DNA from: Treponemataceae bacterium | GTDB lineage: Bacteria; Spirochaetota; Spirochaetia; Treponematales; Rectinemataceae | Direction: 5' to 3' | Assembly (NCBI GenBank): GCA_963677895.2 | Contig: CAXXGJ010000013.1 | Span: 1-17,009 of the forward strand | DNA: 17,009 nucleotides | Part shown: piece after piece, positions 10,033 to 15,088 of the stretch | How the letters are laid out: each line of letters starts with the position of its first letter | Position numbering within the stretch: the first letter of the stretch is position 1 | Translations under genes and position numbers: made by a program | The notes under the pieces: generated by a model | What the model was told of the DNA's origin: nothing | Database searches by the model: none | The model's input: only the letters and a program-made list of their open reading frames with translations

Positions 10033-10758
10033 CTATTGAATACTATTTATTGTGTTCTTGACTTCATCAATAGTATATGCCGGTTTCTTTCTATGTATAA
10101 TTGAATGACAATTAGGACAAAGCGGCCTTAAATCTTTAATCGGATCTACTTTATACTCATGCCTTATTGTTGATAATTCAATAATATGATGAACTTGTAT
10201 ATAATCTGCTCCAAGTATTCCATATACTTCTGAAAGTACTATTCCGCAAACAAAACATCTATTTCCATAATACTCTATACACTTTTTTCTTGCTTTCAAA
10301 TCTCTTTCATAAATATTTACATAGACTTTTTTTGCTTTTCCTTCAATATAGTCATCTTCACTTTCTGTTAACAAATAATTTTCTTCAATATTATTTATTA
10401 GACTATTATACTTTTGCCATATTTCTCGAATTCCATTAATTTTACCTTTCCCTAAATTTTCGAAGTAATCTATGTGCTTTATAACTGAGGATAAAGCGAC
10501 TTTTAGTACAGATAAACCTTCTTCATTATAAATATGGTTAAGATAATATTCAGTGGCATATTCTTGCATTGTCCGAGAGTAATATTTCCCCGTATGCATA
10601 TATTTATAATTATTAATATAAAATGTTGCTGAACTTCTATTAATATTATGTTTATTCCATAATTCATCCAATTCTGATGAAAGTGTATTACTATTGCTAT
10701 TTACTTTTTTTGCAGAGTTATACAGATCTTTGATCATTGCTTCAGTAATTTTAGACAT
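10033..10758 (-). CDS. HNH endonuclease, McrA-like (candidate type IV restriction enzyme); cassette 3
   Basis: C-terminal EG...YERD-xx-AR-xx-C...CFVC...IQVHH...DLRPLCPNCHSIIH zinc-HNH. RBS AAGGAG. Confidence 0.9.
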   Translation of the reverse strand: MSKITEAMIKDLYNSAKKVNSNSNTLSSELDELWNKHNINRSSATFYINNYKYMHTGKYYSRTMQEYATEYYLNHIYNEEGLSVLKVALSSVIKHIDYFENLGKGKINGIREIWQKYNSLINNIEENYLLTESEDDYIEGKAKKVYVNIYERDLKARKKCIEYYGNRCFVCGIVLSEVYGILGADYIQVHHIIELSTIRHEYKVDPIKDLRPLCPNCHSIIHRKKPAYTIDEVKNTINSIQ

Positions 10759-10789: not shown

Positions 10790-10890
10790 TTCTAACATTT
10801 GTTTAACCTGCAAGGCCGTGTATTGGTGCATATTCTGCTGAGGAGCGTAGCGATCACAGGCAAAAAGTGTGACAATAGCATTGTCAGGTT
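10790..10890 (-). repeat. attC site lacking R'' and start of L''
   Basis: R' GTTAGAA and L' GGTTAAA are intact, and the arms AACCTG-CAA/TTG-T-CAGGTT and TATTG/CAATA pair. There is no AAC triplet at the expected R'' position (about 10900-10906), and the Shedu stop codon lies inside the arm. Confidence 0.75.
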
Positions 10891-12077
10891 TCTGACTCTT
10901 TAACAATGAATGATGCCCTTTCGAATAATTCATCATATGTTATTATTTCTATTCCACTAATGCTACGGCGAAATAATTCAAATGACGAGTATTTACTTTC
11001 ATTTATTCCATTATCAGTAACAAATTCATCTAAAGACCCAATAACCAAAAAAGCTCTTGGCTTATACAAAAACAATTGTTCACCAGTAAGATTATCTTCT
11101 ACATCTTTAACTTCTATTTTTGTTTTTATGTTTTCAATTGATCTTTGAATAGTTCGCTGCACTTGAGCAATAGCACCGGCTAATTCATCAGAAATTGCCC
11201 AGCTTTCACCACGATACGCATCTTTTATTTGCTTTAATAGTTGAGCTTTATGCGTTTTAATTTCAGCAAAACAAATTGAATTAATAATACCTCGTGTTTT
11301 TAATAAGGCATCAATTCGTTTTCCTCTTTGAAAAACAGTTGCACCACTCATAACTTGTTCAAGTTTTTTACCGTCTAGTGCTGCATTAAAAATATAGCTT
11401 AGTCCATATCCCATGATCCAAGTATTTAGTTCGAAATATTGTTGCCAAACAGATTCATCTCCATGACATTCGTGTTCAGCTTTGTAAGTGTCAAAATACA
11501 ATTCATCTTCAAGTAATTGCTTAAAAACTTCTAATTGTTGCTTTCTATATCCTAAAGCGACAATATCTTTTTTTGTGATATTATGTTTAATTGCATCAAT
11601 CAAAATATCTTGATTATCATTAACAATTCTAGAAGCTTGTTCCACTGAGAGCAAAACAGCATCCAATGCTGAATCATCGATTATTATTTTGTCTTGATTA
11701 TTTAAATTTGATTCATACAACCCCTTAAGAAAATTATACAGGTTTCTAATCTCAGAATCATGAAATGAATATGCTGATTTATGTGGATTTCCGGTATCAA
11801 CTGAAAATGTTTGAATTATCAAATCTTGTACTTGACGAGGATCTTCTATTAGTAATGCCTTCAACTGGTGTTTTCCGCCATGCTTTATTGCTAATAGGAT
11901 TTCATTCTTAACCTTAATGAATATCTTCTGTTCATCACTTTCCGTGACTTTATGAGCAAAGCGTTTTTTCTTTCCAGTAAATTTATCAGTAAACTCTCTT
12001 GATATATATAATCTTCCTTTTAAGCGTTGTTGAAAATATGAGTAATCTTCGGTATTGTATTCAGTATCAATAGCCAT
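10884..12077 (-). CDS. sduA: Shedu anti-phage nuclease SduA (DUF4263); cassette 2
   Basis: ESVWQQYFELNTWIMG, RIDALL, EIKT (PD-D/ExK), ELAGAIAQVQ, PRAFLVIG and FELFRR-EIITYDEL are the hallmark DUF4263 motifs. Confidence 0.92.
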   Translation of the reverse strand: MAIDTEYNTEDYSYFQQRLKGRLYISREFTDKFTGKKKRFAHKVTESDEQKIFIKVKNEILLAIKHGGKHQLKALLIEDPRQVQDLIIQTFSVDTGNPHKSAYSFHDSEIRNLYNFLKGLYESNLNNQDKIIIDDSALDAVLLSVEQASRIVNDNQDILIDAIKHNITKKDIVALGYRKQQLEVFKQLLEDELYFDTYKAEHECHGDESVWQQYFELNTWIMGYGLSYIFNAALDGKKLEQVMSGATVFQRGKRIDALLKTRGIINSICFAEIKTHKAQLLKQIKDAYRGESWAISDELAGAIAQVQRTIQRSIENIKTKIEVKDVEDNLTGEQLFLYKPRAFLVIGSLDEFVTDNGINESKYSSFELFRRSISGIEIITYDELFERASFIVKESET

Positions 12078-12110: not shown

Positions 12111-12176
12111 ACCTAACATTGGCTTAACCTTTAAATCCGTGCCAAAGGATTTATAAGGTTGAAGCAGTTGTTTGGC
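12111..12176 (-). repeat. attC site (66 bp)
   Basis: Minus strand: R'' GCCAAAC, AACTG, L'' CTTCAACC, TTATAAATCC loop GGATTTAAA, L' GGTTAAG, CCAAT, R' GTTAGGT. This is a near-perfect hairpin with two extrahelical bases. Confidence 0.93.
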
Positions 12177-12189
12177 AGATCTTAATTAT

Positions 12190-13302
12190 TTATTCTTCAG
12201 ATTTAGTATTTACTATTCTAAATGGCTGAGGAATTGTTTTTTCAGGTTCTTTTCTTGCATTTTTTAAATAATCAGTAATGCTTTTCTTTAAATCGACTCC
12301 CCATGTTGGATTTCTTTGATCATATATAATTACCCTTAAGTGCCGTAGATCGAATGGCACATCCTCCAAATTTCCTGAAATAAATATAACTGGTTTTGAT
12401 TTTGCATGTGACAATCCTAACTCATAAAATACATTCGGATTTTTTCCGGTTAAATCAGCTAACAACACTTTTGCCTTAACAATTTGTTCCCAAACTTGTT
12501 CAATAACGCTTCCTGATGAAAATAAGCTATCTGCTCTGATTGGCTCGTATCCAGCATCCTTAATTGCTGGTGCATAAAGGTCCTGATAATACTTATCAAA
12601 CCAATCACCAAATGGCATTAAAACAAAACAAGAATCCAAAAACTCTCTTGTACTAATTGGTTCTTTACTTATTATAGCTTCATCATTCCGAATTATCTCT
12701 CTAGTTGTTTTTTTAATGTCTAGAGGTTCATCAATTTTTTCCACTGGTGCAAATGCTTTTAAATACTCTAAATTGCTTTTATAATTTTTTATAAATGTTT
12801 CAACACGATCTCTTTGAACAGAAAACTCTTTTACTATAGTATTTATAAAGAATTCATCTTCTGGTGGTTTCTTACCTTTATAAAACTCATAAACATTTTT
12901 AAATAGATCAACATTCAAAAAAGAATCCATTAACGCTTTTTGGCGAATAGTTGAAGAAACTGGAGAAACTATATTTGATCCAATTTCTGTTATAGTAACT
13001 CTTACTTTAACACCAGATCCATCAACGAGACCATATAAATTTGCTGATCTAAGTTGTTCTCTAAATCTCCAATCTCCTGACTTATTAAAGCCAACAGCTT
13101 TTGCTAAATCTTCTGAATCAACCGGATTACCGGCATACTTTTCTTCTATAGCTTTTGGTATTTCTAAAGCTTCTTCAAGTGTCTGCTTCGGAAAATTCCA
13201 AGGAGAGTTGTTTTCAGTCTTTTTCTTATTTACTTTTTCAACAATAGGTTCAATTTCTTGTGCTTTATTTTCTATTTTACCTTCAGTCTGCTCAGTACTC
13301 AT
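12190..13302 (-). CDS. Winged-helix-like N-terminus fused to nucleoside 2-deoxyribosyltransferase/TIR-like domain; cassette 1
   Basis: C-terminal CFVLMPF...IRAD...LADLTGKNPNVFYELGLSHA...VPFDLRHLRVIIY. N-terminal FPKQTLEEAL...LAKAVG...SANLYGLV...ITEIG. ATG 13302 follows AAGGAGA. Confidence 0.8.
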   Translation of the reverse strand: MSTEQTEGKIENKAQEIEPIVEKVNKKKTENNSPWNFPKQTLEEALEIPKAIEEKYAGNPVDSEDLAKAVGFNKSGDWRFREQLRSANLYGLVDGSGVKVRVTITEIGSNIVSPVSSTIRQKALMDSFLNVDLFKNVYEFYKGKKPPEDEFFINTIVKEFSVQRDRVETFIKNYKSNLEYLKAFAPVEKIDEPLDIKKTTREIIRNDEAIISKEPISTREFLDSCFVLMPFGDWFDKYYQDLYAPAIKDAGYEPIRADSLFSSGSVIEQVWEQIVKAKVLLADLTGKNPNVFYELGLSHAKSKPVIFISGNLEDVPFDLRHLRVIIYDQRNPTWGVDLKKSITDYLKNARKEPEKTIPQPFRIVNTKSEE

Positions 13303-13335
13303 TTTATCTCCTTTCATTGTCTTGAATATTATTCT

Positions 13336-13352
13336 GCCTAACAATAATTAGA
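13336..13352 (-). other. Core recombination site at array head (attI-like or secondary attG-type site)
   Basis: The minus strand reads TCTAA-TTATT-GTTAGGC, a perfect GTTRRRY with no upstream attC hairpin. GTTAGGCAGA is complementary (9/10) to TCTGCCAAAC at the other end of the same cassette. Confidence 0.7.
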
Positions 13353-13379
13353 AGGTTCTTTAATATTACTCCTGTGTGA

Positions 13380-13835
13380 TCACCATTGATTCAGCTTCCT
13401 TAACGCTACTAGTGCCCTATCCAATCCATCCGCAAACTGCTTAGTATCCTTGGCTATCCTATGCGACCCTTTAGGCGAGGCCGGCGCCATGCCCAAAAAG
13501 CGGAGCTCGGCGGCGGCGTCGCGGAGGGAGCGGCGCTCGGAGGCGTTTTCTTTGGTGTAGAGTTCGCCACAGTCGTTGATCGCGGCAATGCCCGCTTCCG
13601 CGAGGCGCTCGGCGAAGGGGATGTCGCGGGTGACGACGAGGTCGCCTAACGCGGCGTTTCCTTCGATGAAATGGTCGGCGGCGTCAGGTCCCGCGGGCAC
13701 GAGGGTTGCGAGGGCTGGGGGAACGTCGGGGAGCTTGCGGGCCGAGACGAAGCGCACAGGGATGTTTGCGCTTCGGCGCACAAGGATAGGGCGGATGTCG
13801 CGCGGGGCGCTGTCCCCATCCACCCAGATCGTCAT
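13380..13835 (-). CDS. yaiI: YaiI/YqxD (DUF188/UPF0178) family protein
   Basis: MTIWVDGDSAP, GPDAADHFI, GDLVVTRDIPFA and C-terminal FADGLDR. ATGA overlap with the manA stop. Confidence 0.9.
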   Translation of the reverse strand: MTIWVDGDSAPRDIRPILVRRSANIPVRFVSARKLPDVPPALATLVPAGPDAADHFIEGNAALGDLVVTRDIPFAERLAEAGIAAINDCGELYTKENASERRSLRDAAAELRFLGMAPASPKGSHRIAKDTKQFADGLDRALVALRKLNQW

Positions 13836-15088
13836 GGCGACGCCTCGGGATCTAAATGAGAGGAGGCGAGGGAGCCTACGCGAGCGCGGTAGACCGTGCA
13901 GGGACCGCGAAGGGAATAGGATTTGCAGGCCGCGCCTACGAAGACGGATTCGCCTCGCTTGAGGATGATGGATGGATTGGCGCCGGAAGAGCAGTCGATG
14001 GTGGCCTGGCCCGCGGTGCAAAGAAGAATTTCGGGACCGTTTGGCTTCACTTCGGCGTGCTTCTGGTCGGAAAGATCGAAGCGCGAGAGGGCGAATTCGC
14101 GCGCCGGTGTAGGCCAGAAAACCTCGCGCGCGCCGGAAATACCGGCGACGGGCTCGATGAGCGTAGGCTCGGCCTTGAAATCGAGGGTGCCGAGGAGATC
14201 GTCGACATCGACATGTTTATGTGTGAGCCCGCCTCGGATCACGTTGTCGGAAGTGGCCATAATCTCGAGAATCGTCCCCTTCAGATACGCATGCATGACG
14301 CCAGCGGGAATATAGATGCCCTGCCCGGGCTCAAGGAAAAGCACATTCATGAAAAGCGGGGAGATCGCGCCCGGATCGTGGGGATAGTGCTGAAAGCACA
14401 TAAGGACGGTTTGTCCGGCGATTCTCGCGCCCTCATCCTCGCTCTTCGCGAGATCCCGCGCTCGGGAAGTCGCTTTAATTTCGAGCAGCGTCCTTTCTTT
14501 ATCGCGCAGGGCGAGGGCCTTCCCCAGAAGACCGCGCAGCGAGGCTTCAGCGTCGAGGGCCGAAAAACCGAAATACCCGCAGAGCTCGGGACCCAGCAAT
14601 TCCGCGGCCTCGCCCGCGCTCCTGAAACCGCAGAGCGCAGAAAAAGGCGAAAGGGCGACAGCCAGCTCGGGCTTGTGGTTCCTATCCTTGTAGTCGCGCT
14701 CGGGCGCCGATCGCGGCAGGCCGCGTTTTTCCTCGCGCTCGAAACCGATAGCTGCCCGCGCCTTGTCAGGGTGCACCTGAATGGAAAGGGGCATCGAGGC
14801 GGAAAGCGCCTTGAAAAGGAAGGGCAGGTCGTCGAACTCGGCGAAAACCTCCTCGCCGAGACTCTTCATGGGATTGTCGTGGATGTACTTCGGCAGAGGA
14901 AGAGCCTTGCCGTCCGGCAGGAGGAGAGAGGATGGAGCGTCCGGATGCGAGCCCATCCAGCATTCGGCCGAAGGCTTCCCTGAGTCGGTGACGACGCCGG
15001 CATAGAGCGAAAGTCCGTTATAGCTCCCCCACGCGTAGTTTCGTATCGTGTTTTCGAGCTTGAAAACGGGGGCCGAGGTATCTTTCAT
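13832..15088 (-). CDS. manA: Mannose-6-phosphate isomerase, class I
   Basis: YAWGS, AECWMGSHP, LPFLFK, PLSIQVHP, YKDRNHKPEL, HAYLKG and EIMATSDNVIRGGLT. The start at 15088 follows AAGGA. Confidence 0.96.
   Translation of the reverse strand: MKDTSAPVFKLENTIRNYAWGSYNGLSLYAGVVTDSGKPSAECWMGSHPDAPSSLLLPDGKALPLPKYIHDNPMKSLGEEVFAEFDDLPFLFKALSASMPLSIQVHPDKARAAIGFEREEKRGLPRSAPERDYKDRNHKPELAVALSPFSALCGFRSAGEAAELLGPELCGYFGFSALDAEASLRGLLGKALALRDKERTLLEIKATSRARDLAKSEDEGARIAGQTVLMCFQHYPHDPGAISPLFMNVLFLEPGQGIYIPAGVMHAYLKGTILEIMATSDNVIRGGLTHKHVDVDDLLGTLDFKAEPTLIEPVAGISGAREVFWPTPAREFALSRFDLSDQKHAEVKPNGPEILLCTAGQATIDCSSGANPSIILKRGESVFVGAACKSYSLRGPCTVYRARVGSLASSHLDPEASP

Follow-up and report, generated by a model that had tools for sequence, protein, structure and literature searches.

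Among the closest described systems is Swarozyc, in which the single-gene protein KpSwz is reported to combine a DUF4062 TIR-like NADase with an HTH/winged auxiliary domain and to be activated by the phage portal (10.64898/2026.05.01.722283). Type II retron effectors are described as carrying an N-terminal NDT domain and a C-terminal DNA-binding domain (PMC7736814), and the NDT effector of retron-Ec86 is reported to deplete NAD+ (PMC13276650). Single-gene anti-phage cassettes have also been documented in integrons, with those in the first position described as expressed and working (10.1101/2024.07.02.601686); the terms TIR, HTH, NAD and deoxyribos- do not occur in the main text of that paper. 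Here, we describe a 370-aa protein (P0001) encoded by an integron cassette, which is credibly an uncharacterised but common single-gene candidate and a variant of the known NDT/TIR-effector logic.

The window, by which we mean the whole 17,009-nt stretch of DNA that was analyzed, is contig C13 of an assembly (G000) of 3.5 Mb in 39 contigs that is 92.8% complete and 5.5% contaminated. The cassette extends exactly from 12117 to 13341 (1225 bp) and has the features of an integron gene cassette: a single ORF that is bounded by a GTTRRRY core and by an attC able to form the R/L-box hairpin on its bottom strand (Table 1). On this strand, the attC has a folding energy of -13.8 kcal/mol versus a shuffle mean of -5.3 (z of -4.8, with 1 of 300 shuffles equally low), and its kin are found ~55 times on another contig (C39) of the assembly and singly on further contigs. 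The GC content of the P0001 gene is 0.32 versus 0.61 for the backbone, and an AGGAG ribosome-binding site precedes the ATG, which lies ~39 bp from the cassette start. The initial annotation had proposed a complete one-gene cassette with these limits, in the first array position and encoding a 370-aa protein with the motif NPNVFYELG. All of this is borne out: the limits, single ORF and attC agree, the motif occupies residues 288-296 of the minus-strand ORF, and the cassette lies directly behind an attI-like site, beginning ~37 bp past the DUF188 stop. On the 3' side of the P0001 cassette, we observe a Shedu cassette, an HNH cassette and then an S41 peptidase gene. Shedu and HNH were rejected as partners of P0001, as they are separate cassettes and Shedu is absent among the 150 scanned neighbours of the family.

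Table 1. Features of the P0001 locus, in window coordinates.
Feature	Position	Strand	Remarks
Third cassette: HNH nuclease, weakly type IV restriction-like	10033..10758	-	Context
Second cassette: Shedu SduA	10884..12077	-	PADLOC E 1e-144; Pfam SduA_C over cut-off; context
attC closing the P0001 cassette	12111..12176	-	66 nt; recombination point 12117
P0001 gene, 370-aa wHTH + NDT/TIR-like protein	12190..13302	-	ATG 13302, stop 12190
C-domain, residues 218-362	12217..12651	-	NDT/MilB/TIR fold; F226, E294 and D318 conserved
Flexible linker, residues 185-217 (about 34 aa)	12652..12750	-	29-38 aa in the family, ~11% identity
N-domain, about residues 34-184	12751..13203	-	Winged helix and second helical subdomain
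attI-like site	13337..13357	-	No adjacent integrase; core G/TTAGGC, its G at 13342
DUF188 (YaiI/YqxD) backbone gene	13380..13838	-	Last of the dinG-manA-DUF188 run

The attI-like site matches 16 of the 21 bases of an attI-like site found beside IntI in the same-genus genome G301, with equal spacing. With no IntI in the window and no integrase above cut-off in a TIGR02249 search of the whole G000 assembly, P0001 opens, as its first cassette, an array that lacks an integrase and is located at an attI-like hotspot, rather than being part of a complete integron with IntI beside attI. IntI is likewise missing next to the site in the other four versions that we compared, and the IntI genes that do occur in the same-genus genomes (three in G301 and one in G302) are located away from this locus. 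At the three G301 integrase loci (L148, L151, L154), IntI and the first cassettes are co-oriented, and attI lies downstream of the integrase gene.

The five versions compared comprise three in G000 (C13, C4 and C28) and one each in G301 and G302. The three G000 versions are ~95% identical in the backbone, and because the same locus was assembled three times at this identity, the assembly probably mixes strains. The S41 peptidase terminates all five versions, while the first cassette varies: it is the P0001 gene in C13, a 1086-aa NACHT protein in C4 (site at about 7970), a DUF4145/PD-T7-4-like protein in C28 (site at about 14315) and a 600-aa AAA_21 ATPase in G301 (C3, L138). In G302 (C47, L139), there is no ORF of at least 90 aa before the peptidase, and the site is apparently empty. 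The NACHT, DUF4145 and AAA_21 ATPase cargoes all look defence-like. A conserved 107-aa gene, absent from the window, lies 5' of the S41 peptidase in three versions of the locus (L144:3516-3836, L143:4438-4758 and L138:7565-7885), and the one copy scanned has no Pfam or PADLOC match. On another contig of G000 (C6, about 171280-173480), a similar attI-like site is followed by a solo cassette, which carries a small gene and a 468-aa reverse transcriptase. This arrangement may be akin to the SLATT + RT (DRT10/UG17) systems. As for expression of the P0001 cassette, no sigma-70 promoter matches between manA and the cassette (in a scan that was overall at chance, 15 vs 11.9) and no terminator matches after DUF188 (also overall at chance, 6 vs 5.7). 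Read-through out of the housekeeping genes upstream, with DUF188 as a possible source, is the probable origin of P0001 transcripts.

The fold of the C-domain was compared with solved structures, where the best match is MilB (Z of 14.1, rmsd of 2.9 over 133 aligned residues), followed by a TIR-STING (Z of 13.1, rmsd of 2.4, 118 aligned) and several NDTs (Z of 12-12.5), while Foldseek ranks NDTs first. The domain has the flavodoxin-like fold of this superfamily with a Glu, the predicted nucleophile, on helix C. In a comparison of the family profile with Rcl/DNPH1 (E of 3e-5), E294 falls on DNPH1 E104, and E294, F226 and D318 are invariant in 120/120 homologues and kept in a second subfamily. The NDT/TIR-like domain and the putative catalytic Glu of the NPNVFYELG motif, both proposed in the initial annotation, thus hold up, and Glu294 is likely the nucleophile of a predicted N-glycosidase. 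By sequence, PADLOC matches the C-domain alone to its CBASS-TIR effector model (E of 1e-9), and the Pfam PF05014 score is 15.3 versus a cut-off of 28.8.

Residues around the predicted active site bear on the substrate. F226 aligns with position 17 of MilB, 13 of Rcl and 7 of NDT, as counted from structural-alignment start offsets and assuming an ungapped strand 1. In MilB, F17 is described as accommodating ribose, with F17Y reverting the preference to deoxyribose (PMC10603095). Because Phe226 occupies the position of MilB F17 and DNPH1 Y24, we infer a ribose-bearing substrate, for which NAD+ is the most likely candidate and an NMP the alternative. The triad Asp (DNPH1 D80) shows no clear conservation, with its position taken by I/V270 in the HMM register or by the invariant Q269 one residue off; at the Q269 position, most of the wider C-domain family carries Asp, and E268 adjoins the triad-Asp position. 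This pattern would fit a substrate such as NAD+, in which the ribose bears a good leaving group. The phosphate-binding Ser98 of DNPH1 aligns with N288.

A two-copy homodimer model scores 0.43 versus 0.00 for the best control, a mark reached by 20/30 solved pairs and 1/23 monomers. The score lies just at this mark, and it may stem from solved NDT dimers that the model had memorised. The model runs share at least 92% of their contacts with pLDDT of at least 75, and the modelled interface is symmetric (residues 287-301, 265-272, 316-319 and 358-361). It is formed by the third helix of the P0001 domain, the same as in the dimer described for DNPH1. Taking sequence and modelled dimer together, the C-domain leans closer to NDT/MilB than to canonical TIR domains.

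The AF2 model of P0001 consists of two folded domains (pLDDT mostly >90 at about 31-180 and 221-360) joined by a linker that is disordered, with pLDDT <50 at residues 193-214. Modelled alone, the N-domain has a pLDDT of 93 and pTM of 0.88. Its fold matches as a whole are weak, every one of them below Z of 8, and consist of 3bhw (uncharacterised), FokI, BrxA, N.BspD6I and SspB (Z of 5.4-6.9), while its first winged helix matches MarR-type regulators (Z of 5-6). These models and weak matches support the winged-helix or helical N-terminus predicted from the sequence. The charged linker predicted alongside it is indeed rich in charged residues, while its net charge is nearly neutral (-2). The 30 residues before the N-domain have a median net charge of +6 in both subfamilies and -1 in P0001 itself.

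Foldseek returned nothing for the N-domain at E≤0.001, and a search of its profile against PDB sequences returned only TubR, at E of 0.54. DUF7226 is weakly matched by 4/78 family members, and the Atlas points to DUF5343 (0.85-0.86, as a lead only), making the N-domain distantly DUF7226/DUF5343-like. Overall, we regard it as a probable nucleic-acid-binding module. One Atlas cluster combines this N-domain with a different effector, CAP12-TIR (score of 0.86, again a lead only). Distant N-domain relatives without an NDT domain are found at L146:984-1826 and L147:1060-1893, both on the minus strand, and by eye, an overlapping gene downstream of the latter has a PLD-like motif.

A total of 3602 proteins match P0001 at E≤1e-10, part of which may match through the C-domain only. 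The best 120 of these 3602 mostly share 53-61% identity across 89-100% of the length, derive by name from Planctomycetes, Nitrospirota, Proteobacteria, Verrucomicrobia and Patescibacteria, and are all called hypothetical where named. We resolve two subfamilies that are ~30% identical to each other, with per-domain conservation of 63-90% within each (63% for the N-domain and 76% for the C-domain in subfamily 1). The N-domain occurs in 1/69 genomes of the host family and in 3/401 genomes of another phylum, and the gene has a GC content below that of its flanks in 49/57 family loci. The family is thus large, patchy and strongly conserved across phyla. A paralogue of the second subfamily (P0271) forms its own cassette on contig C39 (38430-39494). 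This contig (L109-L111) is a 46-kb array of ~55 cassettes that is cut at both contig ends and includes an AbiJ_NTD5 + NDT-like cassette (16644-17426); as the C39 list illustrates, integron arrays also carry many non-defence cassettes. Across the family, an attC lies 3' of the gene in 5/75 loci by script, plus L025 and L022 by eye, indicating that most members are not cassettes.

Searches of other sequence collections returned few relatives. A single-protein query against genome contigs found only 1 locus, the hits from PLSDB plasmids, INPHARED phages and IMG/VR comprise C-domain matches and no full-length relative (at 80% coverage), and an N-domain search of plasmids gave no match. Pfam and NCBIfam have no match to P0001 over cut-off and PADLOC has partial ones only, such that there is no full-length match to a named system, which by the initial annotation would have removed the novelty. 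We found no paper on this family, members of which could be listed as predictions in supplementary tables, and none on DUF5343; the main texts of DefensePredictor, PMC13069673, PMC11350192 and 10.1101/2024.07.02.601686 contain no matching system. The C-domain alone is promiscuous, being fused to TIR_2, SIR2, CAP12-TIR, AbiJ_NTD5 and SWIB, and also to REC, PAS/GAF, SpoIIE and periplasmic-binding domains. The latter fusions mean that the C-domain is not defence-specific.

In the neighbourhoods of family genes, no neighbour family recurs in more than 3/82 loci, which rules out a fixed partner gene. The absence of an RT, cyclase or other partner, as first read from this cassette, thereby extends to recurrent partners across the 82 loci. 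The neighbours include type II and III RM, Mrr, DrmD, Drt8, AbiE, AbiJ, AbiU2, SIR2 and TIR-TM, as well as several PDC candidates, and many are housekeeping genes. The initial annotation had tied a defence function to defence-enriched homologue neighbourhoods. We examined this in 150 of 177 neighbour ORFs through Pfam, 92 of them also through PADLOC with the rest counted as misses, against a control of 142 ORFs around 38 arbitrary positions in one genome (G000). With raw PADLOC matches at E≤1e-20, there is no enrichment (17/63 family loci versus 12/38 control loci, p of 0.65), as ABC ATPases and proteins of that kind produce cross-hits. When matches are required to cover at least 60% of the profile, a filter picked post hoc after the raw result, they are found for 18/150 family ORFs versus 5/142 control ORFs (p of 0.008) and, counted by locus, for 15/63 versus 4/38 (p of 0.12). 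The expected enrichment is thus missing from the raw test and modest after the post-hoc filter, at the level of ORFs.

A second gene of the same C-domain family lies nearby in 6/82 loci (L020, L025, L061, L063, L066 and L086), among which are fusions to SIR2 and to CAP12-TIR, and a TIR_2 gene is coupled upstream of the family gene in 1/82 loci (L055). At L086:1311-4301, the family gene is directly 5' of a SIR2 + NDT-like fusion with a ThsA-like N-terminal part, a Thoeris-like pairing that is seen once in the 82 loci. At L112:9434-15581 (G065), a divergent full-length homologue (28%) is immediately followed downstream by a type III restriction-modification pair.

We lean slightly towards P0001 being a stand-alone, horizontally spread defence effector that is predicted to deplete NAD+ or nucleotides. 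The gene would have reached this genome as an integron cassette at the attI-like hotspot, and its C-domain, a predicted member of the NDT/MilB/TIR superfamily, would act as an N-glycosidase and form dimers through the catalytic helix. Two N-domains on flexible linkers, behind basic tails, would bind a conserved infection cue, which is more likely a nucleic acid, favoured by a narrow majority of our judgement, than a phage structural protein, to which we give a distinctly smaller share. Clustering or release of the N-domains would then turn the enzyme on, and the depletion of NAD+ or nucleotides would abort infection. In a variant that is possible but doubtful, P0001 is a retron-free counterpart of the Eco1 effector in which the FokI/BrxA-like N-domains act as a pair that senses the state of DNA directly. 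Here, the N-domains would engage phage DNA, or be released upon degradation or modification of host DNA, and would switch on cleavage of NAD+ or ribonucleotides without requiring an RT, msDNA, a second messenger or a partner. Dimers of the NDT type ordinarily need no trigger to be active, which speaks against our preferred reading of a stand-alone depleting effector, as this would require an off-switch. An off-switch becomes unnecessary if P0001 is instead a constitutive NDT-type dimer acting as a non-suicidal glycosidase of narrow specificity, which removes a modified base in DNPH1/MilB-like sanitising of phage modified or damaged nucleotides, either free or in nucleic acid tethered by the N-domain. 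Such an enzyme agrees with the NDT-like modelled dimer and with DNPH1, MilB and NDTs being the closest to P0001 in both sequence and structure, whereas Phe226 speaks against deoxynucleotide substrates, the DNPH1 Ser98 position is N288, the triad Asp is not clearly kept, and an enzyme that hydrolyses free nucleotides would have no need for an N-domain of such high conservation. We consider the narrow glycosidase unlikely.

Two further explanations take P0001 to be something other than a self-contained effector. As a non-defence one-component regulator or stress module, its wHTH would bind DNA and its NDT-like domain would bind or turn over a nucleotide ligand. The fusions of the C-domain to REC, PAS/GAF, SpoIIE and periplasmic-binding domains, the MarR-like first wHTH, the weak defence enrichment of the neighbourhoods and a cross-phyla conservation that is unusually high for an arms-race gene all point in this direction. 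On the other hand, there is no conserved regulated neighbour, the distribution is patchy, low-GC and mobile, those whole-domain fold matches whose function is known are DNA-recognition modules of restriction or defence, and the catalytic Glu is invariant, such that we rate a regulator as improbable, on a par with the narrow glycosidase. Slightly less probable still is a nucleotide-signalling accessory that acts in trans, either as a ThsB-like maker of an ADPR-derived signal or as a ThsI-like effector awaiting a TIR-made signal. The six loci with a second C-domain-family gene, the coupled TIR gene in L055 and the reported use of a CMP-hydrolase effector by Thoeris VIII (10.64898/2025.12.03.692087) would fit such a role. 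However, the second C-domain genes are mutually unrelated outside the shared domain, the other 76 loci, many of them short, have no such gene, P0001 travels alone as a cassette, and no SMODS cyclase was found in the 92.8%-complete assembly.

If confirmed, the assignment of P0001 as a stand-alone defence effector would name a large family that is missed by current defence annotation and would provide an NDT-fold effector that acts without a retron or second messenger. Both subfamilies exist as cassettes in this assembly, and the integrase-less attI-like site would be a compact source of further defence candidates.

When compared with the described systems, P0001 falls outside retrons, CBASS, Thoeris and Swarozyc. 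CBASS and Pycsar effectors (Cap12 TIR-STING, PycTIR) resemble it in that the TIR of TIR-STING is tied with MilB as the best fold match, while P0001 has no STING, SAVED or TPR domain and no match to PF10137, no cyclase is present in the cassette or the scanned neighbours, and G000 has no PF18144. Thoeris VIII shares with P0001 the use of a hydrolase as effector, as ThsI is described as having a CMP-hydrolase domain (10.64898/2025.12.03.692087), but Thoeris is a two-gene operon of TIR and effector, whereas the P0001 family has no recurring partner. The NDT/DNPH1(Rcl)/MilB enzymes (PF05014) share the fold, the catalytic Glu, the modelled helix-C dimer and the MilB-like Phe; P0001 differs in adding a conserved N-domain and in not clearly keeping the triad Asp and phosphate-binding Ser. 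Like the documented single-gene defence cassettes, it is a streamlined single-gene first cassette, although no integrase adjoins its array and the site yields no promoter match.

The closest parallels are with the retron Eco1/Ec86 effector and Swarozyc. The former has the same two domain classes as P0001 in reversed order. Retron Eco1/Ec86 has an msr-msd upstream; the P0001 cassette offers only about 39 bp before the ATG, probably too little room for one. No retron RT is linked in the window, the two RTs of G000 being on other contigs, and the one RT among the 150 scanned family neighbours is Drt8-like. Relative to Swarozyc, P0001 has no match to DUF4062 (PF13271) at E≤0.1, its enzyme domain is C-terminal whereas DUF4062 is N-terminal in Swarozyc, and its dimer is modelled through helix C while KpSwz is described with an AB interface. 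The KpSwz AUX domain is absent among the N-domain matches, from libraries that may lack AUX, and both domains are of the winged-helix class. P0001 and Swarozyc nevertheless share a single-gene design, a catalytic-Glu enzyme of the TIR/NDT superfamily joined to a winged-helix module, and a patchy distribution in defence settings. By analogy, the mode of action of P0001 is probably like that of Swarozyc or of the retron-Eco1 effector.
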